From: Candidatus Caccopulliclostridium gallistercoris
GTDB lineage: Bacteria; Bacillota; Clostridia; Christensenellales; UBA1242
Assembly: GCA_018713725.1 (NCBI GenBank)
Contig: DVOJ01000015.1
Span: forward strand, 84,390-148,389
Length of the DNA: 64,000 bases
Direction: 5' to 3'
Made by a program: the position numbers and the translations under genes. The notes beneath the pieces are model-generated. The model was not told the origin of the DNA, did not search any database, and saw only the letters and a program-made list of their open reading frames with translations. Shown piece by piece: positions 1 to 31,789 of this stretch (position 1 is the first letter of the stretch; each line of letters opens with the position of its first letter).

Positions 1-888
1 GATGTATTTGATTGGGAAAATGTAAGTGGATTTACAATAAGGCACTCAAGAAATCGTAAATTAGCATATTCATCACAAGATATTGATATAGATCAATTTA
101 CTCAGTTTATAACTAATAATAATATATCCATTGAATCTTTAAATGACTTTAAAAATTTCAAAGTAGATATAACATTTAGTGCAGATTCGGAAACTATCTC
201 CCAAGATTATTGGTCTTTATTTGATTGTATTTATTGTGAAGTTCAAATAGAAAATTCTAACTATGTTATAAACGGTGGTAAATTTTATAAAATTGATACA
301 AGCTATTGCAATAAAATAAATCAAGAATTTGAAGCACTTGTTCCAATTCAACCCTATCCTGAAAATTCAAAAACACAACGAGAAGACGAATATATTAATG
401 AACTATGCAATGAAATTAACTATAAAGATGATTTAGTTAATTTGGATAAAGTTTTTGTAAAGTTTGATGATAATATAGAAATATGTGACATTTATGATAA
501 AAAAAACAAAGCCTTTGTTCATATTAAAAAAGATGGTGCTTCTGCACATCTAAGTCATTTATATGCTCAAGCCAAAGTTTCTGCAAGAATATTATGCGAT
601 AATTCAAATATTGCTGAAATTAATAAAGTTTATAAAGAAAAAAGAAATTTTGAATTGGAACCTTTCAATAAAAATGATGTAAAAATAATAATGGCTATTA
701 TATCCAATAAGAAAATTGATAGTACTGGAAAAATAAATCTTCCATTTTTTAGTAAAATAAACTCTATACTTTCAAAAAATGAAATAGAAAGAATGGGATT
801 TACAAATGTAAAGTTTATGTTTATTCATTCTTCAGTTCCTTTAAATGATAAATCTAGAGATCAACGAGTAGTTGCTAATAATTTATAA
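1..888 (+). CDS. 3' part of a TIGR04141/DUF6119-like protein gene (5' end outside window)
   Basis: Frame 1 is open from base 1 to the stop at 886-888, so the listed ORF 442..888 is only its tail. The segment DNIEICDIYDKKNKAFVHIKK resembles the E-x-CD...H-x-K core I associate with this sporadically distributed family (recalled, not searched). It is very A+T-rich like the rest of the island. Confidence 0.5.
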   Translation, partial: DVFDWENVSGFTIRHSRNRKLAYSSQDIDIDQFTQFITNNNISIESLNDFKNFKVDITFSADSETISQDYWSLFDCIYCEVQIENSNYVINGGKFYKIDTSYCNKINQEFEALVPIQPYPENSKTQREDEYINELCNEINYKDDLVNLDKVFVKFDDNIEICDIYDKKNKAFVHIKKDGASAHLSHLYAQAKVSARILCDNSNIAEINKVYKEKRNFELEPFNKNDVKIIMAIISNKKIDSTGKINLPFFSKINSILSKNEIERMGFTNVKFMFIHSSVPLNDKSRDQRVVANNL

Positions 889-1451
889 AAACTACTTCGG
901 TTCATTTTAAGAGATGACAGGGCTTCGGCTAATGTTATCTCTTTTTTCTTATATTGATTTGCTATTATTGTAAAATTTTTTGGAAGTTTTAGTTTAGGGC
1001 GGCCTAGGTGCTTGCCCTTTTCTTTTGCTATTCTTATGCCTTCGGCTTGGCGCTTTTTTATGTTTTCTCTTTCGTTTTCAGCGACAAATGATAGAATTTG
1101 TAAAACTATATCACTTATGAATTTGCCGACTAAATTTTTACCTTCGGTTCGAGTGTCCAAAAGTGGCATATCTAAGACTTGAATATCAACATTCATATCG
1201 TTCACAAGTGTTCGCCATTCATCAATAATCATATCGTAATTACGCCCAAGTCTGTCAATGCTTTTGATTATAAGCAAGTCGCCAGTTTTAAGTATTTTCT
1301 TCAATTTTTGATACTCGTCTCTTTCAAAATCTTTACCACTTTGTTTGTCAATAAATATTGTTTTATCATTTAATCCTTGTGCATACATTTCCACAAGTTG
1401 TCTATCTATATTTTGTTCTTTTGTGCTAACACGCACATAACCATATTTCAT
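861..1451 (-). CDS. small serine recombinase (resolvase / DNA-invertase class, 196 aa)
   Basis: Has the catalytic N-terminal motif YVRVSTKEQNIDRQ, SIDRLGRN, the E-helix region ENERENIKKRQAEGI and a C-terminal HTH. Its size is typical of Hin/Gin/resolvase enzymes. It overlaps the previous gene convergently by 28 nt. Confidence 0.9.
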   Translation of the reverse strand: MKYGYVRVSTKEQNIDRQLVEMYAQGLNDKTIFIDKQSGKDFERDEYQKLKKILKTGDLLIIKSIDRLGRNYDMIIDEWRTLVNDMNVDIQVLDMPLLDTRTEGKNLVGKFISDIVLQILSFVAENERENIKKRQAEGIRIAKEKGKHLGRPKLKLPKNFTIIANQYKKKEITLAEALSSLKMNRSSFYKLLATTR

Positions 1452-1486
1452 AAAATCACCTCTATAGAATTATACCAAACAAAAAA

Positions 1487-1516
1487 GACTCCCACTTTAA
1501 AAGCGGGAGCCTTTTT
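1487..1516. terminator. bidirectional hairpin flanked by an A-run and a T-run, between the recombinase gene and the invertible segment
   Basis: Sequence is aaaaaaGACTCCCACtttaaaaGCGGGAGCCttttt. The stem is CTCCC/GGGAG plus flanking pairs, with A6 on the left and T5 on the right, so it could terminate in either direction. Confidence 0.45.
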
Positions 1517-1517
1517 C

Positions 1518-1538
1518 TGTCCAAAAAGGTGTACCTTT
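1518..1538. repeat. inverted repeat, left arm (IR-L) of the candidate inverton
   Basis: tgtccaaaaaggtgtaccttt matches the reverse complement of 1700..1720 at 20 of 21 positions. It has internal dyad symmetry, aaaggt-GT-accttt, as expected for a serine-recombinase dimer site with a central crossover dinucleotide. Confidence 0.8.
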
Positions 1539-1601
1539 ATATACTCCAACTTTTTATAAAGTTGTTGTGTATTTAACTCTTATTTTATTCTTTGTAAAGT
1601 C

Positions 1602-1629
1602 ATTATAACATATTTTTACATAATTTCCA
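1602..1629 (-). promoter_or_regulatory. extended -10 promoter inside the invertible core (currently reading leftward)
   Basis: The minus strand reads TGGAAA - 16 nt - TGtTATAAT. The TATAAT is the complement of 1602..1607, the TG motif lies at 1609..1610, and the -35-like hexamer is at 1624..1629. Confidence 0.45.
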
Positions 1630-1699
1630 TACGAAAATCGAAATTTTTCTTAATAAATAAACTAAAAATAGATTTCTCTATATTTTTCTAAAAATCCAC

Positions 1700-1720
1700 A
1701 AAGGTACACCTTTTTAGACA
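1700..1720. repeat. inverted repeat, right arm (IR-R) of the candidate inverton
   Basis: aaaggtacacctttttagaca is the reverse complement of IR-L apart from one mismatch. Its central dinucleotide is AC, the complement of the GT in IR-L, which means the two sites are in inverted orientation. Confidence 0.8.
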
Positions 1721-1757
1721 AAATTTTCTTTTTGGGGTTGTACCTAAAAGGAGATCT

Positions 1758-3761
1758 ATGTCAGGACAACCAGATATTGATATACGAGAAAATTATATTA
1801 AGTGCTTGGATACTGAGCTTTTAAGTATTTTGCTTAAAGATAGAAGTTCTGGCAAAAACATAATTTGGGCGACTGACATTTATGCAAGTAAAGGTGCGTC
1901 TTATGACTCGTGGGAGCCAATAACAGTGAAACAAATTACTGGCAGGTTTGGGAAAATAATAAGACCACGAGTAGATAAATCTCAAAAAGAACAGAAAATA
2001 AGAATAAAAGACAAAGCTGAAGTTTTTACACCTTCGTGGATATGCAATGAAATGAACAATCATCTTTGCGATGAATGGTTTGAGAAAAAAGATGTGTTTA
2101 ACACTGCAAAAGATAAAACTTGGATAGTTAATAATAACAAAATACCTTTCACAAACGAAAAAGATAAAACTTGGCAAGATTTTGTAAAACTAAAGGTTCT
2201 AGAAATTTCATGTGGGGAGGCGCCATTCCTCACTAGCCGATATGATACAACAACTGGCGAATGGATAGATGTAAACAACAGAATCGGTGCATTAGACAGA
2301 AAATTAAGAGTAATAAATGAAAATTGCAATTCTGAGCAAGATTGGTATAACTGGACACTTATCGCATTCAAATCAACTTTTGGCTATGAGTGGCAAGGCG
2401 ATAGTTTACTGATTGCAAGAGAAAATTTGCTATTCACATTTATAGATTATTATATCGCAAAATTTGGAATGTTTCCTATAAAAGAGTATTTGATAGAAGT
2501 TGCAAAAATACTTTCTTGGAATATATGGCAAATGGACGGACTAAAAGATGTTATTCCAAACAGTTGCAAACCTGTGCAAAAAAGACAAATGTCATTATTT
2601 GAAGATGAAGAGACAGAGCCTTGTTTAGGTTGTGCAAAAAACGATAACAGCAAGCACACTGGAATTTACTGCAAAATATTAAACTGGGAAACCAAAAGAT
2701 CAATTAAATTTTTCAAAGGAGAAAAGCGTATGAAATTTGATTTTGTTATAGGAAATCCACCTTATCAAATGGAAGATAAAGGAACAAACTCACAAAATTC
2801 AGTTGAAAGAACAAGTGCCATAGCTGTCTATCCATTTTTTGTAACTGAAGCGAAACATATTGCAAATATTGTCAGTTTGATTATTCCTAGTAGATGGATG
2901 ACCGGAGGTAAAGGTCTTGATAAATTTAGAACAGAAAATATAAATGATTGTCATTTTAGACTAATTCATGATTATGAGGATGATAAAGAATTGTTTCCCA
3001 ATACCGACATAGGTGGTGGTGTTATGTACTATGTTTGGGATAACAAATATTCAGGAATGGTTGATTATTTTTTTCATAATCATAGTGGTATAACAAGGAC
3101 AAAAAGATATTTGAATACTGGTAGTAATATAGTTATAAGGGATTATTCATCATCTATAATAGTTAATAAAATCGGTTATTCCAATAGTTTTATGGAACTA
3201 GTTTCTTCTCGTAACCCGTTCAATCTAAATGGGAATGCTCTAAACAATGAGCACAATTTTTCACAAGAAAAAAATGATACGAATTGCAAAATTTATTGTT
3301 GGGATGGGAACCCAACTATTAAATTTTTAAATAAAGAATTAATTTCCGAGAAGGTCCTACTCAACAACTTCAAAGTTTTCATTTCAAAGACAGCAGATCC
3401 CCCTATAAGATTTGGTAGAGAAAATAAAATGATATTAAGAAAACCTTTTTTAGGGTATCCAAATGAAGCTTGCAGTGAAACATATTTGACTATAGGAACT
3501 TACAAATCGCAGGAAGAACCTTTAAATATTATTAAATACATCAAAACAAAATTATTCAGATTTCTTGTTTTACAAAAAAAGAAAACCCAAAATGTTTCTC
3601 GTACAGTATTTGAATTTGTACCTTTACAAAGCTTTACTGAAAAATCAGATATCGATTGGTCAAAATCTATACATGAAATTGATTTGCAGTTATACAAAAA
3701 GTATGGATTAGACCAAAACGAAATTAACTTTATTGAATCTCATATAAAGGAGATGAAATAA
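1758..3761 (+). CDS. gamma-class N6-adenine DNA methyltransferase with a C-terminal target-recognition-like region (Eco57I-like family, 667 aa)
   Basis: Motif order is AEVFTPSWICNEM (motif X), VLEISCGEAPFL (motif I), FDFVIGNPPYQ (motif IV, NPPY), then IIPSRWMTGGKGLDKFR. An AAGGAG RBS sits 4 nt upstream. The stop overlaps the next start (TAATG). Confidence 0.85.
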   Translation: MSGQPDIDIRENYIKCLDTELLSILLKDRSSGKNIIWATDIYASKGASYDSWEPITVKQITGRFGKIIRPRVDKSQKEQKIRIKDKAEVFTPSWICNEMNNHLCDEWFEKKDVFNTAKDKTWIVNNNKIPFTNEKDKTWQDFVKLKVLEISCGEAPFLTSRYDTTTGEWIDVNNRIGALDRKLRVINENCNSEQDWYNWTLIAFKSTFGYEWQGDSLLIARENLLFTFIDYYIAKFGMFPIKEYLIEVAKILSWNIWQMDGLKDVIPNSCKPVQKRQMSLFEDEETEPCLGCAKNDNSKHTGIYCKILNWETKRSIKFFKGEKRMKFDFVIGNPPYQMEDKGTNSQNSVERTSAIAVYPFFVTEAKHIANIVSLIIPSRWMTGGKGLDKFRTENINDCHFRLIHDYEDDKELFPNTDIGGGVMYYVWDNKYSGMVDYFFHNHSGITRTKRYLNTGSNIVIRDYSSSIIVNKIGYSNSFMELVSSRNPFNLNGNALNNEHNFSQEKNDTNCKIYCWDGNPTIKFLNKELISEKVLLNNFKVFISKTADPPIRFGRENKMILRKPFLGYPNEACSETYLTIGTYKSQEEPLNIIKYIKTKLFRFLVLQKKKTQNVSRTVFEFVPLQSFTEKSDIDWSKSIHEIDLQLYKKYGLDQNEINFIESHIKEMK

Positions 3762-6700
3762 TGGCAAAGATAAAAGTTAAAACAACTGAAAAAGTTGCTC
3801 CAATGATATATGCTTACACCACTCCGGGGGTTGTATATCACGATGGTTGGACAAAGATTGGATACACTGAAAGAGATGTTGATGCAAGAATAAAAGAGCA
3901 GACACAAACAGTAGATGTTGTGGCAAAAAAAGAATGGCAAGACCTAGCAATTTTCTCTGATGGGAAAACTAGATTTACGGATAAAGAGTTTCATTCATAT
4001 CTAACTAAAAATGATATTAAAAGAAAAGACCCAAAACCTGATGCAGAAGGTTGCCCAGAATGGTTTTATATTTCTGGTGATGAATCATATATTTTGTTTG
4101 GCAAGTTTAAAAGAGATAAAGGTGTTTTGCAAACTTTAGGTGTTATCCCTTATGTTTTAAGAAAAGAACAAAAAGATGCAGTAAAACAAACAAAAGATTA
4201 CTTTTTAGACAACTCTCACAAAGCAGAATGTTTGTGGAATGCAAAGCCAAGATTTGGCAAAACATTATCAACCTATGATTTGTGTAAGGCACTCCCTGAC
4301 ATTAACAAAATACTTATTGTAACTAACAGACCTGCTATTGCAAACTCATGGTATGATGATTATGTTAAGTTTATGGGAACAGAATCTGGATATTATTTTG
4401 TAAGCAATGTTGATGGACTTAAAGATAAAAAATATGTATTATCAAGAGAAAAATATCTTGACCTAATATCTGAACCAAATCACAAAGGATGCATAGAATT
4501 TGTGTCTCTTCAAGACCTTAAAGGCTCAATATATTTTGGTGGTATGTTTGATAAACTTAGAGAAGTTGCAGACCTTGAATGGGATGTTTTGGTTATTGAT
4601 GAAGCACATGAAGGAGTTGATACATACAAAACCGATGTGGCATTTGACCAAATAAAAAGAAGATACACCCTTCACTTGTCTGGCACGCCTTTTAAAGCGA
4701 TTGCAAATGATAAATTTCCACCAAAAGCAATTTACAACTGGACTTATGCTGATGAGCAAAAAGCAAAGCACGAATGGAATGAATTAAGCGAAGAAGAAAA
4801 TCCTTATGCAAACTTGCCACAACTTAATTTGTTTACTTATAAAATGTCTGATATTGTTCGTGATAAAGTGGAACAAGGTGCTGACTTTGACAATGATGGA
4901 CAAAATGAAGCATTTTGCTGGGACTTAAACGACTTTTTTGACACAAATGCAAGTGGAGAATTTATACATAATGATGCAGTGGATAAGTTTCTTGATGCTT
5001 TAACGAAACAAGAAAAATTTCCATTTTCAACCGAAGATTTAAGAAAAGAATTAAAACACACATTGTGGCTGCTTAAATATGTTAGCAGTGCAAAGGCTCT
5101 TGCTAAAAAATTGCAAAATCATGAAGTTTTCAAAGATTACAAAATTGTCCTTACTGCTGGCGATGGTAAAATAGACAATGAAGGAAATTCTAGTGATGAA
5201 ATAAGTTTTGATAAGAATATCAAAAATTCTTATGACAAAGTTGTTGATGCAATAAAAAACAATGATAAAACAATTACTATTTCCGTAGGGCAACTTACAA
5301 CTGGCATTACTATTCCAGAGTGGACTGCTGTTATGATGCTTTCAAATGTAAAAAGCCCTGCACTATATATGCAATCAGCTTTTAGAGCACAGAATCCATG
5401 TTTGTTTAAAAATGAAAGTGAAAGTTACAGAAAACAAAATTCTTATGTATTTGACTTTGATCCTGCAAGAACGCTTACTATTGTTGAAGAATTTGCAAAT
5501 GACCTTATGGCTGATACAGCAAATGGTCGTGGCGACTCTGACACAAGGAAACAACATGTAAGAGAACTTCTTAACTTCTTCCCTGTATATGGCGAAGATC
5601 CAAATGGCGAAATGATTGAACTTGATGCTGAAAAAGTTTTATCTATCCCAAGATCAATTCATGCAAAAGAAGTTGTTCGCCGTGGATTTATGAGCAATTT
5701 CTTATTCCAAAATGTAGGCAATATATTCAATGCTCCAAAGGAAGTTTTGGATATTCTTCAAAAATTTGAACCCATCAAAGAGCCTGTTAGAATAAAAGAA
5801 GATACAAAAGAAGAACTTAATCTAGATGATGAAGGAAATGTTGTAATCCCAGAAGAACAAGTTATTGGAACTGCAAATGATGTTTTTGGAGAAAAGATTT
5901 ATGGAGATATTGAACAAAGTTTAATAGACACTGTTACAACAATTCAAAAAGAAAATGAAAGCACACATAGAAGAGATGAAAAACTTAATGCTCTTTTAGA
6001 GGCATTCCACACAAATATTACAGATACATTAGTTAAAACTGCAAAAGAAAATTATGGCAGTGATTTATCTAAATCTACTCAACAAGCACTTGTTAGAAAG
6101 ATAAACACAACGGCAGATACTTTTGTTAAAAAAGAATATGGCAATTATCAAATAAGCAACAACAAACTTGAAAATGAGCGATCAAAAGAACTTGAAAATG
6201 CAAAACAAACTGGAAATGTCCATAAGATTGCAGAAATAAATACAAAATTTGATGAAAAGAAAAAAGAAATTGAACATAACTTTATGAGTTCTATTCAATC
6301 TGAAGTTAAAAATGTTATTGATAATGCAGGTAGAACTATTGTTGATGTCGTTGAAACGGATAAAAAAGAAAAACAAAAAGATTCTTTAATGGATAATGTC
6401 CGTGACCATTTAAGAGGCTTTTCAAGGACTATCCCATCATTCTTGATGGCATACGGAGATGAAAATACAACTTTGGAAAATTTTGATAAAATAATACCGG
6501 ATGAAGTTTTTAAAGAAGTAACAAGTATTTCACTAGATGATTTTAGAAAGTTAAGAGATGGTTTTGATTATGTTGATGAAAACGGCGAAAACAAACATTA
6601 TAATGGATTTTTTGATTCAGTGGTTTTCAATGATTCAATAAAAGAATTTTTGAAGAAAAAACAAGATCTCGCAAATTACTTTGATGATAACTCAAAAGAA

Positions 6701-7123
6701 GATATTTTTGACTATATTCCACCTCAAAAGACTAACCAAATATTCACTCCAAAGAAAGTGGTAAAAGAAATGGTAGATAATCTTGAAAAAGAAAATCCAG
6801 GTTGCTTTGATGACCCAAATCATACTTTTATAGACCTTTATATGAAATCAGGACTTTATATTGCAGAAATTGTTAAAAGGCTTTATAGAAGTACAAATAT
6901 GAAAAAATTATATCCAAATGATGCCGACAGATTAAATCATATTTTTGCAAAGCAAGTGTATGGTTTAGCACCAACAGAAATCATCTACAGAATTGCAAAA
7001 TCCTTCATATTAGGTTTTGACAAAGATATAAAAATAGATAAACACAATCTAAAACAGTTTGATTCCCTGCCTTTTGCCCAAGATGGAGCACTTGAACAAA
7101 AACTTGATGAAGTGTTTGAATAA
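3761..7123 (+). CDS. fusion protein: N-terminal GIY-YIG-type (T5orf172-like) domain + SF2 DEAH helicase (type III Res-like) + K/E-rich linker + C-terminal partial methyltransferase-like fold (1120 aa)
   Basis: N-terminus is IYAYTTPG...GWTKIGYTERDVDARIKEQ...EWFYIS. Helicase motifs are PRFGKT (I), VIDEAHEG (II), LHLSGTPF (III) and MQSAFRAQNP (VI). The C-terminus has NQIFTPKKVVKEMV (motif X-like) and FIDLYMKSGLY (motif I-like) but no NPPY. Confidence 0.8.
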   Translation: MAKIKVKTTEKVAPMIYAYTTPGVVYHDGWTKIGYTERDVDARIKEQTQTVDVVAKKEWQDLAIFSDGKTRFTDKEFHSYLTKNDIKRKDPKPDAEGCPEWFYISGDESYILFGKFKRDKGVLQTLGVIPYVLRKEQKDAVKQTKDYFLDNSHKAECLWNAKPRFGKTLSTYDLCKALPDINKILIVTNRPAIANSWYDDYVKFMGTESGYYFVSNVDGLKDKKYVLSREKYLDLISEPNHKGCIEFVSLQDLKGSIYFGGMFDKLREVADLEWDVLVIDEAHEGVDTYKTDVAFDQIKRRYTLHLSGTPFKAIANDKFPPKAIYNWTYADEQKAKHEWNELSEEENPYANLPQLNLFTYKMSDIVRDKVEQGADFDNDGQNEAFCWDLNDFFDTNASGEFIHNDAVDKFLDALTKQEKFPFSTEDLRKELKHTLWLLKYVSSAKALAKKLQNHEVFKDYKIVLTAGDGKIDNEGNSSDEISFDKNIKNSYDKVVDAIKNNDKTITISVGQLTTGITIPEWTAVMMLSNVKSPALYMQSAFRAQNPCLFKNESESYRKQNSYVFDFDPARTLTIVEEFANDLMADTANGRGDSDTRKQHVRELLNFFPVYGEDPNGEMIELDAEKVLSIPRSIHAKEVVRRGFMSNFLFQNVGNIFNAPKEVLDILQKFEPIKEPVRIKEDTKEELNLDDEGNVVIPEEQVIGTANDVFGEKIYGDIEQSLIDTVTTIQKENESTHRRDEKLNALLEAFHTNITDTLVKTAKENYGSDLSKSTQQALVRKINTTADTFVKKEYGNYQISNNKLENERSKELENAKQTGNVHKIAEINTKFDEKKKEIEHNFMSSIQSEVKNVIDNAGRTIVDVVETDKKEKQKDSLMDNVRDHLRGFSRTIPSFLMAYGDENTTLENFDKIIPDEVFKEVTSISLDDFRKLRDGFDYVDENGENKHYNGFFDSVVFNDSIKEFLKKKQDLANYFDDNSKEDIFDYIPPQKTNQIFTPKKVVKEMVDNLEKENPGCFDDPNHTFIDLYMKSGLYIAEIVKRLYRSTNMKKLYPNDADRLNHIFAKQVYGLAPTEIIYRIAKSFILGFDKDIKIDKHNLKQFDSLPFAQDGALEQKLDEVFE

Positions 7124-8009: not shown

Positions 8010-9541
8010 ATGAAAACGAAAGTAGTAATTTATGCAAGATATAGCAGTGATAAACAAACCGAACAATCTATTGAAGGACAACTTAGAGTTTGTTATGAAT
8101 ATGCTGAAAAATGAATATATGGTTGTTGGAGAATATATTGATAGAGCTCTAACTGGAACAACTGACAAACGACCTGAATTTTTACGAATGATTGAAGATA
8201 GTAAAAAGAAAATGTTTAATTATGTGATTGTTTATCAATTAGATAGATTTGCAAGAAATCGTTATGACAGTGCCACATATAAAGCAAAACTTACAAAAAA
8301 CGGAGTTAGAGTCTTATCTGCAAGAGAAAATATTTCAGACGATGCCAGTGGTGTTTTAATGGAATCTGTGCTTGAGGGCAGAATATTATTCGAAAGAATT
8401 AAGTCAAAAAACAAAGCGTGGAATGAAAGAAACCGTATTGAAAGGTCGCTGGACTGGTGGCTATTTGCCTTATGGCTACAACATATCTGACCATAAATTT
8501 GTAATAAATGAGTATGAAGCAGGCATAATTAGAAAAATCTTTAACGATTACATAAACAATACAAAAATTAAAGATATCGTAGAAGAACTAAACAATATGG
8601 GCATTAAAAACAAATGTGGAAAACCATTTTGTTCAGATTACATCTCTCGAATTTTGCAAAACAAAAGATATATTGGGATTCTTAGTAAAACTTATGAAAC
8701 TGAAGAAAAATCACCAAAAATTATAGATGAAGAAACATTTAATCTTGCAAACGAAAAATTAAAAATGAACAAAGGCAAAAATGCAAAGTATAAGGCAGAT
8801 GAACTTTATTATTTAAGTGGAAAAACAATTTGTGGATACTGTGGTTCACCTATTACAGCAGATAGTGGAACAAATCATAGTGGTAAAATTTATAAGTATT
8901 ACAAATGCTCAAAAAGAAAGAAAAAGAATGCTTGTAAAAAGTCTATAATTCAAAAAGATTTATTTGAAAGTAAAGTTATAGATAAAACAATACAAGATGT
9001 ATTTTCTCCTAAAATTATAGATGAAATTGCCGAAAATATTGTTATTAACTTTAACAAACAAATAAAAGACAATCCAGAAATTATATCTTATGAAAGGCAA
9101 CTAAATGATGTTAGTAAAAAAATTCAAAATATAATGAATGCAATTGAACAAGGAATAATAACAGTAACCACAAAAGAAAAACTTATGCAATATGAAAGCG
9201 ATAAAGCCAACTTGGAGGCTTGTATAACAAAATTAAAGACAAGAACAATACAGCAATTAGATAAGAGCACTGTAAAGGCATTCTTGCACGATTTTGAAGA
9301 CCGAGATTATACAAAACCTGAAAACAGATTTAGATTGCTAGAAATATTTATCAATAAAATATATTTATACGATGATTATGCAATTATTATTTACAACGAC
9401 ATCAAAAATTCAAGTTCAAAAATAGATTTTAGCAATAAAAAAACCGAACCTGAACAAAAGTTCGGATTCGGCTCTTTTGGCTCCCCAGGTAGGATTCGAA
9501 CCTACGACCTATCGGTTAACAGCCGAGTGCTCCACCGCTGA
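8010..9541 (+). pseudogene. large serine recombinase, disrupted by two frameshifts
   Basis: ATG at 8010 gives MKTKVVIYARYSSDKQTEQSIEGQLRVCYEYAEK, then TGA at 8112..8114 right after an A5 run (8107..8111). The protein continues in frame 1 (NEYMVVGEYIDRALTGT...VLMESVLEG) and again in frame 2 from ~8375 (AEYYSKELSQKTKRGM...), with zinc-ribbon Cys pairs and a coiled-coil. The last ~35 codons are antisense to the tRNA-Asn terminator and gene. Confidence 0.8.
9437..9465 (-). terminator. intrinsic terminator of tRNA-Asn
   Basis: The minus strand reads CCGAAC-ttttgttcag-GTTCGG-ttttttt, starting 12 nt after the tRNA CCA end. Confidence 0.65.
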
Positions 9542-9552
9542 GCTACTGAGGA
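9478..9552 (-). tRNA. tRNA-Asn (anticodon GTT), CCA encoded
   Basis: Manual fold of TCCTCAGTAGCTCAGCGGTGGAGCACTCGGCTGTTAACCGATAGGTCGTAGGTTCGAATCCTACCTGGGGAGCCA gives a 7-bp acceptor stem, GCTC/GAGC D stem, anticodon loop CTGTTAA, and T arm GTAGG-TTCGAAT-CCTAC. Confidence 0.9.
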
Positions 9553-27000: not shown

Positions 27001-30000
27001 CTACAAGATTTGGAGCTGTTAGTTTAGTAGCAGCAAACTCGTAGTAAGCGCTAGATAGCGTGCTTGTGCCGTTACCACTTACAAGCACTTTAAAGTTTAC
27101 AACGCCGCCAGCATAATTTTTAAGATTTTCATTAGAACTAAAATCTATAAAGTTATCGTTTACTGCGCCTTGGTGGAAAATATCGCCGGACGCATCTAGA
27201 TACATTACTATATAGTAAGGGTTTTCGCCAAGTTTTGTCCATGTAACGTAGGCGTCGGCGTCTACGCTTGCTGAGTTAACCGGAGCTAGTCTTGAAAAGC
27301 TTACTTCTTGAAGCTCAGAGCTAATTTTGTCGTCTGAATTTGCCCTAACGGCAACTGTATAATTTCCGCTAGCTGCAACGTCTTCTTCAAGAACTATACT
27401 TGTAGTTTCAATTTCTGATAAAATTACGCCGTTTAAATATATGGTATAGCTTGTAGCGCCTGCTGACGCGTTCCAAGATATAGTTACTTCTTTTTGCTCT
27501 GGGTCCTGTTCGTCTACGCTTATATTAAGGCCGCTAACTACGTCTAGCTTTGTTAAGGTGTAAGCAGGGCTATAACTTGAACTTACGTTTGCAACTGGGC
27601 TGTTTTCAGCTTCTACGTATGGGCTTAGGCTGGTTACATCATTTACTATATACCTTACTTGTACGCTATAATCGCCGATTTCTGAAACAAAGCTAATAAG
27701 CCTTTCGTCCTGAACGGAAATGCTAGTTTCAAGTAAGTTTTCTATTAAATATTCTTCGCCGTCAGAGTTTGTAATTTTTAACGTATAGCTGTTTGCTAAG
27801 CTATTTGCATTCCATGATATTGCGCCGTTAGATACGCTTGCCATGTTTGGCGTAAATAGCTTGTATGCTCTAAATGTAGTGGTGGCACTATCTAAATAGT
27901 AGTGACTATTTGATATTTCGCTAGGGCTAGTTGCCACATAGTAAACAAGAATTTCTTGGTCCGTGTTTTCATTTATTGCGTTTAGGTCTAGGCTTGCTAC
28001 AATGCTGCCATTTATGCTTATTCCGCTTACGCCGGAAGGTGTGGTTTCGTTTAGTTCAAACACGCCGTCCGTAACCTTTGCTAAGCTTGGAGCCTTTAAC
28101 CTTTCAGCTACTAGGCTCTCTTCGCTAGACGTTATGAACACGTCGCCGCTAACCTTTACGGCTATTATATATTCTTTAACTTCTTCAAAGGTTTGGTTAA
28201 AGGTATAGGAATACACGCCTTCTAAAAGCGCTGGCTGAGCGCCTTCTAACACGCCGTCTAGCGTGATTTCAAAGTTAGGAACGTTAGAAAGTTTAGACGT
28301 CCAAGTAAAGCTTATTACAACTTTGCCGTCTATTACGTCTAGTTTTAAGTTTTCAACCGAATTTTCTTTAACTACTTCAAATTCTTGTGAATTTACAGAA
28401 GTAAGGTAAGCTACCGCGCCAGCCTGCACGGAAGCAATGCTCTCCGCGCTTTCTGCACGAACTACAAACTTAAAGCTATCTGTTTCAGAAACAGAAAGGC
28501 TATTTGTATCCGCTTGATATATTGTAGTGCCCTGACTGTTCGTTATTTCTACAACGTATTTTGCGCCGCTAACTTCGTTCCAGCTTATAACGCCGCTGTT
28601 GTACGCTAAGTTTGTTGGCGCGTCTAGCCTAGCAAAACTAAAACTTGCTTCTTCGCTAGATAGATAGTATTTGCCGTCTGTAATTTCACTAGACGGAATA
28701 GCGTCGAACTTGACATTTTGTGTTCTAGTGCCTTCTTTAAAGGTCAAATCTGATAGGTCAATGCTTTCTGAAACAGCGCCGTTAACGCTAAAACTTATAG
28801 CGCCACTAATTAGCTCTAAAATATAGACATCTACGCCGGCTTGTTTTATAAGAGTGGTAGGAGCCGCGAGTTTTTCAAGGGTTACGCTGCTCTCTTCTCC
28901 GCTTAAAAAGGTTGAACCTGTGGCTTGTACGGAAATTGTATAAGTTTTGGCTTGGCTAAAATCTGACGTTAACGTAAAGCTTGTGCTTTGGCTCTCGCCA
29001 ACTTCGCCGCCGTCTACATATATCTTATATATAACGCCTTCTACGTTGGTTACGCCTTGCCACGATAAAGTTATAGCTTCGCCAATATCAAGTTTTAGCC
29101 CGGTTACCGTGTCCGCCTTGTTTACGTTAATTTCTTGACTTTCAAAAGACGTTATATAGCCAACAGCGCCCGTGCTTACAGCGCCAAGCGACGCGATATC
29201 TTCTTTAAACGCTACCACCTTTGCAGTAAAGGCGTTTTCGCTTTGGTAAGCAAAAGTGCTTTCTTCGCTTTCCCCAACTATTAAGTTATTTACGTAAACA
29301 TTATAGTGGTCTACGTTTTCTACTGCGTCCCAAACAAGATTTTCATGTGCAAAATCGTAGTGTAAGTTCGCAGGGCTAGATAATCTTTCCACCTTAAAGC
29401 TTTCAAAGTTAGAATTTAAGAAATACGTTCTTATACCGTCTACAATTCTGTATTCTTCCGACCTATAAGCAACTTCAATATCGAACACGCTTTCGCTTGC
29501 TGGTAAAATTGCCGTCTCTTGTCCGTTTATTCTAATTATTGTAGGGTTTGCACCAAGAACAGCTGTGTTGCCGTTAAAGTTTGCGTCCGCCGTGCTAACT
29601 ACTCCGCCCTGAACTTTAACTAGGCTAGGAGCTATAAGCTTTTGTATATTTATTTCGTAAACGCTTGAATTATTAACAAGCGGATTTGCGTTTAACGCCT
29701 GCGCCGTTGCCTTGTAAACACCCGCATTTGCTAAGTACTCGGCAACGTTCATGTTTATAACGCCGTCTTCTAAAAGCGTTTTTGTTTGTTGCAATCTTCC
29801 GTCCGCGCTATAAAATTTAAGTTCGTACGTTGTGCTAGCAATGGCGTCGTTTGGCGTGAGCGTTAAAGTTAAGGTGCTTCTATCAAAGGTAAGGCTTGGA
29901 GCAAGTAAATCTTCGTAAATTGTTATCTTTTCGCTAGCTGTGTAATCTAAGGCGTCTAAAACGGTGCCGTTATTTCCAAGCGCCTTTATTTTAATTGTAT

Positions 30001-31789
30001 ATTCGCCGTAGCCTAGGCTAGACGGAATTTCTATGCTTGTAGCTGTTGTGCTTACGCGCTCTAATGCTACGTTTTCCGTGCCGTAAACTTCAAAGTAGTA
30101 TTCGTAAGCTGTTGCATTTGGAACTGCGTCCCAAGAAATTGTTGACCCGGAAACTTGTACGTTTTGAACGTTTGGAAGCCTTTCAACGCTTGCCGTCATT
30201 TCAGAAGTTATGTAAATTTCCCTAGCCGAGCCTTCGTTTTTAGCTTCCACTTTTAAGGTGTAAACTCCAGCTTCGCCAAACACGCCGCTTCCAAGGTTTA
30301 ACGTTTCCGTACCTTCGCCGCTAGCCTCATAGCTTCCTAGTTCCGTGTAAGCGCCATCGCCAAGCTTTTTATACACCACAAAATTTTTAGCGTTTAAAAT
30401 AGAATCTAGGCTAACGCTTGAAATGCCATTATTATATGTGTGTGTAAGCGTTGCAGTGCCAAGCCTTGAAATTGAGTAGTTTTCGCAAGGGTCGCCGTTT
30501 ATTTCACTATTTGTTTGAGCTGCAAAATATGCTGAAACGGTGTAGGTATCGGAGTCTTGTTTATTAAATTCGTAAGACGCCGCGTTAACTGTTTCAGTAG
30601 CGCTCGTTCTTGTGTTTGTAAGCGTTATAACTGGTGTGTAAGTTTGGCTGTTTGTTATGCTAAATTCGTTTGTATCGTAATTAAACGTTAAGTTTGCAAC
30701 TGGAAGCTTTGTTACTGTTAGCACGTTGGAGTTTGCGCTTTCAAAGGTTGAACCCTCAGTAGACTTTGCCCTAACGTAAACCCTATATTCGCCCGCAGCT
30801 CTGCCCTGCATATTATATGAAGTTACGCTCACTTCTTCTGATGCTATCGTGCCTGTGGATACGTTTTCTACAAACACTTCGTAGCTCTCTGCGCCTATAA
30901 CGCTATCCCAAGTAATCGTGCCGTTCTCTACGGATATTTCTAAGGCTTCAAGCTTAGAAAATTTTAAAATTTCGCTAGAAATGCTGAACTTATCTATGCT
31001 TACCACAACTTGAAGCGTTAAGGTCTCCCCGCTAGTTAATGGAAGGGTTACTTCAAAGTTTTCATTTTCGCCCTTTGTGATAGTGCCGTCTAAATACACG
31101 CCATTTCTAATTATGCTGTAACTTGCATTTGGTGCATTCTTTTCGTCGAGCCACGTAAGTTTTGAAGTGGCTTCGTCGTAACTTAAATTTTCCACGCCAA
31201 ACACTGCGGAAAAGGTGTAGCTCTCGCTTGAATCTGACGCTAAAAATCTATCTCCGCCAACTGCTTTAACAGTAGCTGTGTAGTCGCCCGCTTCTGTTAA
31301 AACATAAGAATTGGTTACAATGTTTTCAATAATTATCTCTTCTTCGCCGCGGCTTAATGTAAGCTCGTAGTTATCGCATACGTAGGTTTGCCCGTCTATT
31401 CTTTCAATTACTTCTTGCCAAGAAAGTATGCCGTTGTTATACGTTAGCCCTTGCGGAGTGCTAAGCCTAAAACGCTCGCCTTCCACTTTTACAGAAACTT
31501 GGGTAATGGTTGCGCCCGCTTGCGCATAGAGCGTACACATTCCCGCATTTCTTCCGGTTAGCTTATTTTCCGGCGTGATGTATAAAATTTCAGAATTAGA
31601 AGAAGTAAAAACCACGTCTTCAAAATTTGCGCCTTCCAAACTTAAGTATTCCGAAGGGTCTACTTCCTGCCCTATGGATAAAGTAATAAGTTCGTTTTCA
31701 AAGCTTAATTTTGGCTGACCGCACGCAGTAAAAATTAAGCCTACAACTAGGCACATAAAACTTATTAAACAGACTTTAAATTTTTTCAT
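21023..31789 (-). CDS. giant surface lipoprotein / adhesin-like protein (3588 aa) with Ig-like and FN3-like repeats and a C-terminal GLUG-type repeat region
   Basis: Lipobox LIFTAC. At least 12 modules carry the pattern [IL]xW[DN]xVxxAxxYx[IV] (e.g. ITWDSVIGAESYEVFV, ISWDAVPNATAYEYYF, LTWDAVESASGYYIYI). The C-terminal repeats GGIVAQNAVNSVIVNTYSTG / LGGIVGYSANNNITNSYA resemble the GLUG motif. Confidence 0.85.
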   Translation of the reverse strand: MKKFKVCLISFMCLVVGLIFTACGQPKLSFENELITLSIGQEVDPSEYLSLEGANFEDVVFTSSNSEILYITPENKLTGRNAGMCTLYAQAGATITQVSVKVEGERFRLSTPQGLTYNNGILSWQEVIERIDGQTYVCDNYELTLSRGEEEIIIENIVTNSYVLTEAGDYTATVKAVGGDRFLASDSSESYTFSAVFGVENLSYDEATSKLTWLDEKNAPNASYSIIRNGVYLDGTITKGENENFEVTLPLTSGETLTLQVVVSIDKFSISSEILKFSKLEALEISVENGTITWDSVIGAESYEVFVENVSTGTIASEEVSVTSYNMQGRAAGEYRVYVRAKSTEGSTFESANSNVLTVTKLPVANLTFNYDTNEFSITNSQTYTPVITLTNTRTSATETVNAASYEFNKQDSDTYTVSAYFAAQTNSEINGDPCENYSISRLGTATLTHTYNNGISSVSLDSILNAKNFVVYKKLGDGAYTELGSYEASGEGTETLNLGSGVFGEAGVYTLKVEAKNEGSAREIYITSEMTASVERLPNVQNVQVSGSTISWDAVPNATAYEYYFEVYGTENVALERVSTTATSIEIPSSLGYGEYTIKIKALGNNGTVLDALDYTASEKITIYEDLLAPSLTFDRSTLTLTLTPNDAIASTTYELKFYSADGRLQQTKTLLEDGVINMNVAEYLANAGVYKATAQALNANPLVNNSSVYEINIQKLIAPSLVKVQGGVVSTADANFNGNTAVLGANPTIIRINGQETAILPASESVFDIEVAYRSEEYRIVDGIRTYFLNSNFESFKVERLSSPANLHYDFAHENLVWDAVENVDHYNVYVNNLIVGESEESTFAYQSENAFTAKVVAFKEDIASLGAVSTGAVGYITSFESQEINVNKADTVTGLKLDIGEAITLSWQGVTNVEGVIYKIYVDGGEVGESQSTSFTLTSDFSQAKTYTISVQATGSTFLSGEESSVTLEKLAAPTTLIKQAGVDVYILELISGAISFSVNGAVSESIDLSDLTFKEGTRTQNVKFDAIPSSEITDGKYYLSSEEASFSFARLDAPTNLAYNSGVISWNEVSGAKYVVEITNSQGTTIYQADTNSLSVSETDSFKFVVRAESAESIASVQAGAVAYLTSVNSQEFEVVKENSVENLKLDVIDGKVVISFTWTSKLSNVPNFEITLDGVLEGAQPALLEGVYSYTFNQTFEEVKEYIIAVKVSGDVFITSSEESLVAERLKAPSLAKVTDGVFELNETTPSGVSGISINGSIVASLDLNAINENTDQEILVYYVATSPSEISNSHYYLDSATTTFRAYKLFTPNMASVSNGAISWNANSLANSYTLKITNSDGEEYLIENLLETSISVQDERLISFVSEIGDYSVQVRYIVNDVTSLSPYVEAENSPVANVSSSYSPAYTLTKLDVVSGLNISVDEQDPEQKEVTISWNASAGATSYTIYLNGVILSEIETTSIVLEEDVAASGNYTVAVRANSDDKISSELQEVSFSRLAPVNSASVDADAYVTWTKLGENPYYIVMYLDASGDIFHQGAVNDNFIDFSSNENLKNYAGGVVNFKVLVSGNGTSTLSSAYYEFAATKLTAPNLVVNAASLYIEEAGYAPENSYNFNLNIQMPNSGSITLEYTNTSGLATFAYPEYFPSGEYTFTAKMVSKTLNVITSNEVSITKTRLDTISNHVFKREALTAEQEANYTSDGATTYLSDKIYIEFTPSANASSYSLSVGSSYTASLPLDSSRIDITGALDTALYGNFTLRVISEATDDSNYINSPSYYITGRRLNALQEAEFMTRDGKVSWTDYQTGVNGYLIKVSEIEGADWGYWQSTDGSVRVANLNGLDSGIKAYNIKALGNITESGISTGVILDSSYLTDAKQFNKLEKPVVTVYNGFIALNTIENATQYIAYVNGIAYTLEDHSYMSQIENQFIGYNESMATNLDANVTYQVTVQARGQSTEIYSDYSEPINIKFLENVNTNTGDVKLVLDPSGDLTKTKLTFNLAANNEGAVIHFRKPDGNYIYTGFASYADSNRTETIYELNRNGFSEYMENATIRVASRGSSSLQGDFYYLNSAFSQGFNLKALADPQNVRIENGILTWDAVESASGYYIYINRNQYYVGSEYEMYTGTSLALPERYGSLTNNTVYSVGVVAVSATTDYVSSHWHNNNQDLEGTYYIEDVVLPHAPDEIDLVNGGLVWSDGLSGLDNANINLVSLALNINRLFNSPILLLYNAASGLNINLKFEIPGIELQFTNIATNEKYNIVLNSNMTNNADGSVTLDLEYLDFIKVSSTQIQKIQELRDFILDNGGTFGITEDDQMIKVMNELIRLFQEKLEDEESIGWPNIYTLFDELKGENNIPAGRYYLQIRQVGDSIFLNSNFNSRKEVYIPEAPYNLTIEAPETLEGEKQFYLSWDNVTINSSVSYAPANKYLVIAENSLGERRIVARVDESTETSAGNNRTRINITTLVNDGTLTPDDVKLFVVVAGDSNVTLTGIKSNVVNVQILPEVTPFMEEGYLSWDTLASAYGVQIIATNEAHIINETIALSTNSRRWAGDGMTPGTLYSASIRAVGDVYISTENGVKTFIISGKKTDFSLHKLNAPTVNVNTSGLFNWNAVTGNVSGYIVAVGEEEVYLTADTLSYESTFAGFNLYKFRAQGDTCQIEENGTYYINSLPNMQEGKSYYGTYGVMLPGVSEIVIEEGNLKWSTVNLSLYNLNSIADQDNYKQKIVYKLIIGDNVYYINQEDYQDVNGRYVTFGDFEELPAGTYNMSLQAFIYWTPKVSTGSLPDMIASFTNTVDGGSDYFALLGSKESTLTGNISKAKSITADMYVSSGLAIEDGMIVWDFVTETDEDGFELKKHLDYILTFATDENFTQNVVTVNATFDGTTLYAKWWDEVLTDGLSYYVKVKVNGKDSYLSSSNSVYADSASSPVVLRTVSLVRFESMLMNEGVYPYGDEDYGNYIRVELNSSALQALSSTFNFGFEIRYRAIGSDSSTPWNTYNFGRLDYIAGEENTVIYTLDISKLGGVTSFEYQVQLVLLDESNTRWLKSNWSDRDNFNTPEPVEAILLDEERQEFYWKDELIPESSTYYGYIVLDELLDDEGNVISSYKFIIPSGSHSGEDYSALIGADRYIYYAPFEMGTHRISVRKTPDNQGALVSSETYYKAEDEVNEYTPFEFNLFTVSELSTADHGSSANPYLISNSTDFLNIALRATKYSYMTTYENESGEEVSGETTYTFRQTADIEIESTINGYFVNTFKNVYDGNNFKLTYTIANSGSNASLINTIGENGAVRNVRLDVTLNSSNSTITFASLALNNIGSVYNSVLENVHISSSSASINYAGFVYSNYGRIERVVSMASFTATNIANAGAIVYSNARTTAIVYQSGNVGDISLNGARIAQRLGGITVSNSGSIDECYNKGSLSINSNVADVQIGGIVAQNAVNSVIVNTYSTGTVTLSGNHTSVSLGGIVGYSANNNITNSYATQVITSPAGGVSDTLSYGAIIGRLQSSISERNNYYSAASTSAIGNMYSSIFATGIYLSDYMDEGFVDRLNNGDNAFIADVAGENLNGGYPIFVWETSEELLYNNMD

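Follow-up and report, generated by a model that had tools for sequence, protein, structure and literature searches.

The window analysed here is a 64,000-nt stretch of contig DVOJ01000015.1 from Candidatus Caccopulliclostridium gallistercoris, with a G+C content of 37.7%. Close to its left end, an intergenic region of 306 nt (1452-1757) parts two divergent genes, one at 861-1451 on the minus strand and the other at 1758-3761 on the plus strand. The former encodes a small serine recombinase, and the latter encodes a DNA methyltransferase that opens a two-gene operon. The region between them is considered here as a candidate promoter switch, in which a short segment flanked by inverted recombination sites would be flipped by the adjacent recombinase.

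In size and catalytic domain, the 196-aa recombinase corresponds to a small serine recombinase (~180-200 aa, C-terminal DNA-binding tail). Its translation contains a catalytic N-terminal domain with YVRVSTKEQ (Ser9) and DRLGR, and the residues from GRPK onwards suggest a helix-turn-helix-like C-terminal tail; no match to Pfam HTH_7 was obtained in this protein at E 0.01. Among solved chains, the closest relatives were Sin/Bin3 (7e-32), followed by the Tn3 and gamma-delta resolvases and then by Gin (8e-13), so that Hin/Gin-type invertases were not the closest relatives. The NCBIfam Mpi model NF009949 scored 51.9 bits, compared with a cut-off of 272. Because the recombinase is nearer to Sin than to Gin and falls below the Mpi cut-off, it belongs to neither the Hin/Gin nor the Mpi group by membership. 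Its nearest GTDB matches were gut Christensenella-like and Clostridia metagenome-assembled genomes.

Inverted arms were detected by the repeat finder at 1515-1538 and 1700-1723. These arms are 24 nt long, are complementary at 22 of 24 positions (92%) and are separated by 161 nt, whereas the best 24-nt pair in 150 shuffles of the 306-nt intergenic region reached 19 of 24. The motif AAAGGTNNACCTTT, with at most one mismatch allowed, matched only the two arm sites in the 64-kb window (0.38 matches expected). Each arm extends to a 26-bp imperfect palindrome consisting of two 12-bp half-sites around a 2-bp core. The four half-sites have the common consensus GTCnAAAAAGGT, the two sites are 175 bp apart, and the GT core of one is the reverse complement of the AC core of the other. 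A pair of crossover sites for a serine recombinase, placed in inverted orientation, would have this geometry. No candidate for a third, degenerate site bounding a mobile cargo was found; only the two perfect sites stood out, and matches with up to three mismatches were somewhat more frequent than by chance (98 versus ~64 expected).

A small hairpin is located inside the segment beside the left site (window 1539-1572, arms 1539-1553 and 1558-1572). A block at the same place, GTTAAATACACAAC, is kept even in two related loci, L024 and L025. Both the hairpin and the block lie within the transcribed leader in either orientation, and they might serve to bind an accessory protein or act as part of the leader.

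The segment contains a single good promoter, which in the window points at the recombinase gene and at a strong terminator hairpin that sits between the switch and this gene. The hairpin has a folding energy of -23.1 kcal/mol (z -6.4 versus shuffles), and the extended -10 element of the recombinase gene is found just downstream of it. The methylase start codon follows the right site after only 38 nt, and no plus-strand promoter-like site was found in 1452-1757 by the consensus scan. According to this consensus prediction, the switch promoter faces the methylase gene in just one orientation. With Rfam at a permissive threshold, only sub-threshold matches due to the terminator hairpin were obtained, and no riboswitch or known leader was found in the region. 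The original prediction for this DNA had described 21-bp inverted repeats, each arm a dyad with a non-palindromic 2-bp core and the two placed in inverted orientation, a single good minus-strand promoter firing into a hairpin terminator, a separate recombinase promoter beyond that terminator and no fixed promoter for the methylase. All of these elements were recovered, with the repeats being slightly longer than proposed. The coordinates are given in Table 1.

Table 1. Features of the switch locus and of the operon next to it (window coordinates).
Feature	Position	Strand	Description	Basis
Small serine recombinase gene	861..1451	minus	196 aa	Pfam PF00239, E 2.9e-27, residues 3-148
Recombinase expression signals	1456..1477	minus	extended -10 TGgTATAAT (1469-1477); ribosome-binding site AGAGGTGA (1456-1463)	read directly
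Terminator hairpin	1481-1517	minus (read 1517..1481)	17 pairs and T-run; A/T runs on both sides	terminator scan
Left crossover site	1519-1544		GTCCAAAAAGGT GT ACCTTTATATAC; core 1531-1532	read directly, repeat finder, motif scan
Invertible segment	1531-1707		core to core, 177 bp; interior between arms 1539-1699	flipped orthologues join at the cores
Switch promoter	1629..1602	minus	-35 TGGAAA (1629-1624), 16-nt spacer, TG-extended -10 TGtTATAAT (1610-1602)	consensus scan
Right crossover site	1694-1719		ATCCACAAAGGT AC ACCTTTTTAGAC; core 1706-1707	read directly, repeat finder, motif scan
Cargo gene 1 start signals	1747..1760	plus	ribosome-binding site AAAGGAG (1747-1753), ATG (1758-1760)	read directly
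Cargo gene 1	1758..3761	plus	667-aa N6-adenine DNA methyltransferase, Eco57I-type	Pfam PF07669, 2.4e-22
Cargo gene 2	3761..7123	plus	1120-aa SF2 helicase-type protein (ResIII)	Pfam PF04851, 7.1e-12

The window was compared with related loci from four sources: contigs encoding a recombinase identical to that of the window, GTDB species genomes (80 loci), a metagenome scan with the left arm as the query, and contigs encoding three near-identical recombinases. Loci in which the promoter faces the terminator, as in the window, are referred to below as OFF, and those in which it faces the cargo gene as ON. The junction predicted for the flipped state, ...AAAAAGGT GT ACCTTTGTGGAT..., was found in L009, L015, L019, L103, L109, L111 and L115. 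The recombinase of L009 is 96% identical to that of the window, and this locus has exactly the predicted inverted product (...AAAAAGGT GT ACCTTTGTGGATTTTTAGAAAAATATAG...), with TGCTATAAT reading toward the methylase gene. The interiors of the window and L009 are 90% identical if one of them is reversed and 57% identical when unflipped, whereas the flanks are 99% and 95% identical.

Closer pairs were obtained within sets of near-identical recombinases. In the P0118 set, which shares one identical 194-aa recombinase, L102, L104, L105 and L106 are OFF and L103, L109 and L111 are ON, and three further contigs (L107, L108 and L110) break off exactly with the final base of the repeat arm, ...GGTGTACCTTT. 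The recombinase genes of L102 (OFF) and L103 (ON) are 100% identical in nucleotides, and their right flanks agree at 99.3% over 400 nt; their interiors reach 98.7% identity only with one of them reversed, compared with 57% otherwise. In the P0055 set, L113 and L114 are OFF, L115 is ON and L118 is broken at the repeat. Both orientations were thus observed in contigs, and because they occur in near-identical genomes, it may be concluded that the segment is a real on/off switch. The original prediction had proposed that, once inverted, the promoter would read into the methyltransferase gene and that the present state looks OFF, and it had suggested a comparison of homologous loci for the flipped state. 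In the window the promoter does face the terminator, and the flipped state was found in related loci (e.g., L009 and L103) with the predicted junctions being exact.

It could be argued that an inversion took place in the past and became fixed in some lineages, so that the two orientations are a strain polymorphism rather than an active, reversible phase variation. The ON and OFF contigs indeed come from different samples, and OFF predominates in the consensus assemblies: approximately 23 of the 34 family loci are OFF, as is the window, while 4 loci were ON by the motif scan, L026 and L028 were ON by eye and 5 had no clear call. However, both states accompany recombinase genes that are 100% identical and flanks that are at least 99% identical, and ON and OFF loci are interspersed among relatives with 86-100% identical recombinases. 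The ends of contigs also bear on this point. Nine contigs from independent samples and assemblers (L008, L011, L012, L088, L091, L107, L108, L110 and L118) terminate in ...GGTGTACCTTT, where the outer arm has its inner edge; eight of them reach the last base of the arm, and L088 goes one base further. Samples with such breaks include Logan ERR14033091, SRR30884457 and ERR13737584 and ENA ERZ964358. Four more (L022, L021, L127 and L129) stop within 6 nt of this edge, and 15 of the 87 loci found by way of the protein extend for less than 300 nt upstream of the recombinase start. Because the 24-nt repeat is shorter than commonly used k-mers and the breaks fall where the two orientations first differ, these ends point to two continuations within one sample, which is indirect evidence of a within-sample mix of orientations. 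Together with the compensatory core changes described below, these observations make a fixed polymorphism very improbable.

An assembly artefact was rejected as the origin of the flipped states, which recur across independent assemblies and assemblers and involve a 24-nt repeat shorter than the usual k-mers. One deviating contig, L001 (ERZ1478590 scaffold_11141), encodes an identical recombinase and lacks 80 nt, equivalent to window 1620-1699. The missing stretch includes the -35 element together with the half of the right site that faces the interior. Possible explanations are a deletion variant that is locked OFF and an artefact from the assembly of a mixed population.

The crossover site is kept in more than 40 related loci, with the family consensus GTCnAAAAAGGT-NN-ACCTTTTTnGAC. 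Site pairs are recognisable in 34 loci with a spacing of 94-216 bp, centre to centre, and in all 34 pairs the second core is the reverse complement of the first (GT/AC, AC/GT, TT/AA or AA/TT). L015, with a recombinase 90% identical to that of the window, has TT/AA cores within the GT/AC clade; since the core is changed on both sites, the sites stay compatible. Such compensatory changes show that the ability to recombine is still under selection. When 10 switches, both ON and OFF, were aligned in a common orientation, TGnTATAAT was invariant, and it is the only extended -10 element of the interior in 27 of 34 switches. In about 22 of 26 loci, a hairpin followed by a T-run directly adjoins the recombinase-proximal site, with stems of unrelated sequence, and an extended -10 element for the recombinase (TGGTATAAT or TGATATAAT) usually comes directly after the T-run. 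The cargo gene starts 11-60 nt past the distal site in most loci. The conserved terminator is read here as a putative insulator that keeps the switch promoter off the recombinase gene.

In a subset of loci (L011-L016, L093, L098 and L102-L108), an insertion of ~146 nt is present between the recombinase start and the terminator; it brings a second extended -10 element (TGATATAAT) near the recombinase gene. A near-perfectly palindromic form of the site, TGTCCAAAAAGGTGTACCTTTTTGGACA, was observed in the JGI contigs L090, L092, L094, L096 and L097 (Ga0099364, Ga0123355, Ga0131853 and Ga0123356). L097 has two such sites 136 bp apart with a TTGCAT...TGCTATACT promoter between them, and in L092, L094 and L096 the site adjoins a putative reverse-strand recombinase gene (by eye). 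Judged from these matches, the site family extends well beyond the clade of the window. No match was found when a collection of viral contigs was scanned for the site, and there was no sign of a phage-borne cassette in that collection.

The position of the terminator is also relevant to a different reading of the inversion, according to which its main output would be control of the recombinase, through terminator read-through or another transcript, with the methylase being driven from elsewhere. The promoter does face the recombinase in most assemblies, and terminators are rarely fully efficient. Nevertheless, the terminator between the promoter and the recombinase gene is kept in structure throughout the family, with the recombinase retaining its own extended -10 element below it, and the cargo gene lies so close to the distal site in most loci that no room is left for a promoter. 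Moreover, the switch is constant while the cargo varies. Control of the recombinase as the main output is therefore regarded as very unlikely.

It is considered highly probable that the locus is a promoter inverton flipped by the adjacent recombinase, which switches the methylase operon and is OFF in the window. According to the proposed mechanism, recombinase dimers would bind both 26-bp sites, synapse and cleave at the 2-bp cores, and rotation followed by religation would leave the 177-bp segment reversed. Since the cores are non-palindromic and mutually reverse-complementary, only the inverted alignment should religate, and the product would be an inversion and not a deletion. In the window state, a minus-strand transcript with a predicted start at ~1595 would be stopped ~80 nt downstream at the terminator. 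The methylase-helicase operon would be OFF, since it lacks any promoter outside the switch and the switch promoter faces the terminator. In the flipped state, transcription would start at ~1643 on the plus strand and proceed through a leader of ~115 nt, via the right site, into AAAGGAG-ATG, turning the operon ON. The recombinase would be supplied at a low level, independently of orientation, from its own extended -10 element below the terminator. The data show the sites, the promoter, the terminator, the two orientations in near-identical genomes, the assembly breaks at the repeat edge and the covariation of the cores; catalysis by the 196-aa recombinase is inferred, as are the transcriptional output, the switching rate and the phenotype (variable methylation, phage defence).

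Resolvase res sites normally lie directly upstream of resolvase genes. The idea that the sites are a res region or autoregulatory operators of a Sin-like resolvase, bound without inversion, would fit this location and the similarity of the protein to Sin/Bin3 and to the Tn3 and gamma-delta resolvases, but it has almost no chance of being correct because both sites are full 12-2-12 crossover-type dyads, 175 bp apart and with cores in inverted polarity, and because the inverted product with junctions at the cores in close relatives contradicts it.

Several points weigh against the promoter inverton interpretation. The promoter and the terminator are consensus and energy predictions. The case for switching within populations is drawn from assembly breaks and from near-identical contigs of different samples, and the predominance of OFF could reflect a strong bias of the switch or its infrequent use. 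The analysis identified neither an accessory nor an enhancer element that would restrict the reaction to inversion on so short a segment, with no enhancer model being applied. Finally, the 1120-aa cargo protein, a presumed restriction component, has no PDB sequence match, and its T5orf172 match is below the cut-off.

The unit of recombinase, terminator and switch recurs in gut Clostridia and Bacilli, mostly before DNA methyltransferase genes of six Pfam families, and a DNA methyltransferase is the first cargo gene in 17 of 25 scored loci. The first cargo gene is of the Eco57I type in the window, L009, L013, L015, L023, L024, L025 and L040; MmeI_Mtase-like in L014 and L029; N6_N4_Mtase in L017 and L059; EcoRI_methylase in L019; N6_Mtase in L026, L028 and L032; and D12/Dam in L078. 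Elsewhere, it encodes an SNF2 helicase (L016 and L102-L105), a MACPF surface protein (L033), NanE in Holdemania (L054, L055 and L069) or a protein without family assignment (L035, L041 and L042). Among the contigs encoding near-identical recombinases, identical recombinases were found to precede different cargos.

When L095 and L014 were compared with window 1720-1760, the leader and ribosome-binding site (…TTTTTAGACAAAATTTTCTTTTTGG.GTTGT.CCTAA.AGGAGAT.TATG) were found to be kept before unrelated methylase genes, with the divergence beginning at the ATG. The expression platform thus defined seems to stay constant while the cargo behind it is exchanged.

These observations tip the balance slightly toward a broader proposal: a Sin-like recombinase, an insulating terminator, 26-bp sites and a flippable promoter with its leader and ribosome-binding site would form a portable phase-variation cassette of uncultured gut Clostridia (Christensenellales-like) and of Bacilli/Mollicutes-like hosts, coupled repeatedly to methyltransferase genes from at least six Pfam families and, in occasional cases, to genes with surface or metabolic functions. 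More speculatively, the recombinase may also help in the exchange of cargo at the distal site, given that unrelated cargos are found behind identical recombinases and switches and that they diverge immediately past the site or the ATG. The association with methyltransferases at the level of the cassette is the part most worth following up.

The cargo operon of the window consists of two genes, since the start of the 1120-aa gene overlaps the methylase stop codon. The 667-aa methylase matched the PADLOC models MTase_II (6.9e-118) and IIG-type (1e-41). Its catalytic motif NPPY (residues 333-336) is invariant in the orthologue alignment. In six orthologues, residues 1-337 and 622-667 are densely invariant, and the part between them (~338-620) is almost unconserved. 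The variable middle looks like swapped target-recognition regions, which would place different specificities behind the same switch. The 1120-aa protein matched part of the PADLOC REase_MTase_IIG model (1.2e-16) and, weakly, T5orf172 at its N-terminus (0.0029, below the cut-off); it is presumed to be a restriction or motor component. PDB sequence searches with the methylase and with the 1120-aa protein gave no match that would refine the cargo type. The look-up of contigs encoding the exact window methylase collapsed to one place.

The surroundings of the locus were inspected as well. The window begins inside a DUF6119/TIGR04141 gene (1-888). This gene is present at full length (546 aa) in L001-L007 (4564-8152), where RloB and AAA_21 genes precede it; therefore, the switch lies in a defence-island-like neighbourhood. 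Next to other identical recombinases, UvrD-helicase, GmrSD_N or HEPN genes were found instead. On the other side, a large serine recombinase at 8032-9552 appears decayed. It consists of two overlapping frames (8032-8490 and 8372-9541), its resolvase domain begins at profile position 29 and lacks a YxRVS-type serine motif, and it overlaps at its end with a tRNA-Asn gene (9478-9552, minus strand). The region looks like the remnant of a tRNA-integrated element and is possibly the right edge of a restriction-modification (RM) island. Further along, a 3588-aa open reading frame is present at 21023-31789 on the minus strand.

If the promoter inverton interpretation is correct, a whole RM-like operon of a common, uncultured lineage of gut Clostridia would be under the control of a stochastic DNA switch. 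Sister cells would differ in genome methylation, in susceptibility to phages and plasmids and possibly in methylation-dependent gene expression. The switch would also explain the recurrent contig breaks at these loci. The site consensus, taken together with the insulator and the methyltransferase cargo, could serve as a search key for such switches in metagenomes, and the compact pair of serine invertase and sites, with a substrate of 177 bp, is a candidate genetic tool.

The literature search yielded no description of this recombinase and site family, the tables of Jiang et al. 2019 being outside its scope, and the full-text search of papers with the site sequence returned unrelated matches only. 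Promoter inversion is a known mechanism, and the combination of recombinase and site family appears undescribed.

In its operation, the switch resembles the Hin/hix flagellar phase switch of Salmonella (Hin/Gin/Cin/Pin) as well as promoter invertons of the Mpi type. As in the window, a small serine recombinase acts in the Hin system on two inverted 26-bp sites with 12-bp half-sites and a 2-bp core, and the expression of a downstream operon depends on the orientation of a promoter carried by the invertible segment. The gene for Hin is itself part of the segment, which measures ~1 kb, and a Fis-bound enhancer is needed; Fis is not known from Firmicutes. Unlike Hin, the recombinase gene of the window is outside the 177-bp segment with a terminator in between, the hosts are Clostridia and Bacilli, and the protein is nearer to Sin. 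Promoter inversion of the Hin type is covered in a recent review (PMC11868660).

The Sin/Bin3 and beta-type small serine resolvases of Firmicutes resemble the window recombinase in the arrangement of their domains and in having dyads around a 2-bp core as crossover sites. However, Sin and beta resolve directly repeated res sites provided with accessory sites, whereas the sites described here are inverted crossover-type dyads and the product is an inversion. A Sin/beta res system would be expected to have direct repeats with accessory subsites and to yield deletion or resolution, whereas the cores at this locus are inverted and inversion was observed.

The master invertase Mpi of the gut commensal Bacteroides fragilis, an organism with capsule-promoter invertons, is a serine recombinase of ~197 aa that flips short promoter segments (PMC11761130). 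Mpi acts globally on many distant promoters, whereas the window recombinase stands beside a single local target, with two sites in 64 kb. The repeat sequence of the window also differs from that of Mpi, and the protein scores below the cut-off of the Mpi model. The RecV switches of Clostridioides difficile (cwpV, flgB and pdcB) are short promoter or leader invertons that cause phase variation (PMC5903667; PMC11868660). RecV is a tyrosine recombinase that acts on many sites, unlike the dedicated, adjacent serine recombinase of the window.

With respect to the function that is switched, the closest comparison is with phasevarions, in which, as proposed here, a DNA methyltransferase or RM system undergoes stochastic on/off or specificity switching, with variable methylation and phage defence as the outcomes to be expected. 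The routes given in a 2025 review are slippage at simple repeats in mod genes and, in type I systems, the shuffling of hsdS target-recognition domains by recombination (PMC11868660; PMC7672463). Promoter invertons near methylases have been suggested or catalogued in PhaseFinder-type surveys (PMC10333322; PMC11741434). Unlike the listed phasevarions, the locus described here would have the promoter of a whole operon flipped by a serine recombinase. If this is true of the cassette in general, promoter inversion would join repeat slippage and hsdS shuffling as a third widespread way of making methylation phase-variable.

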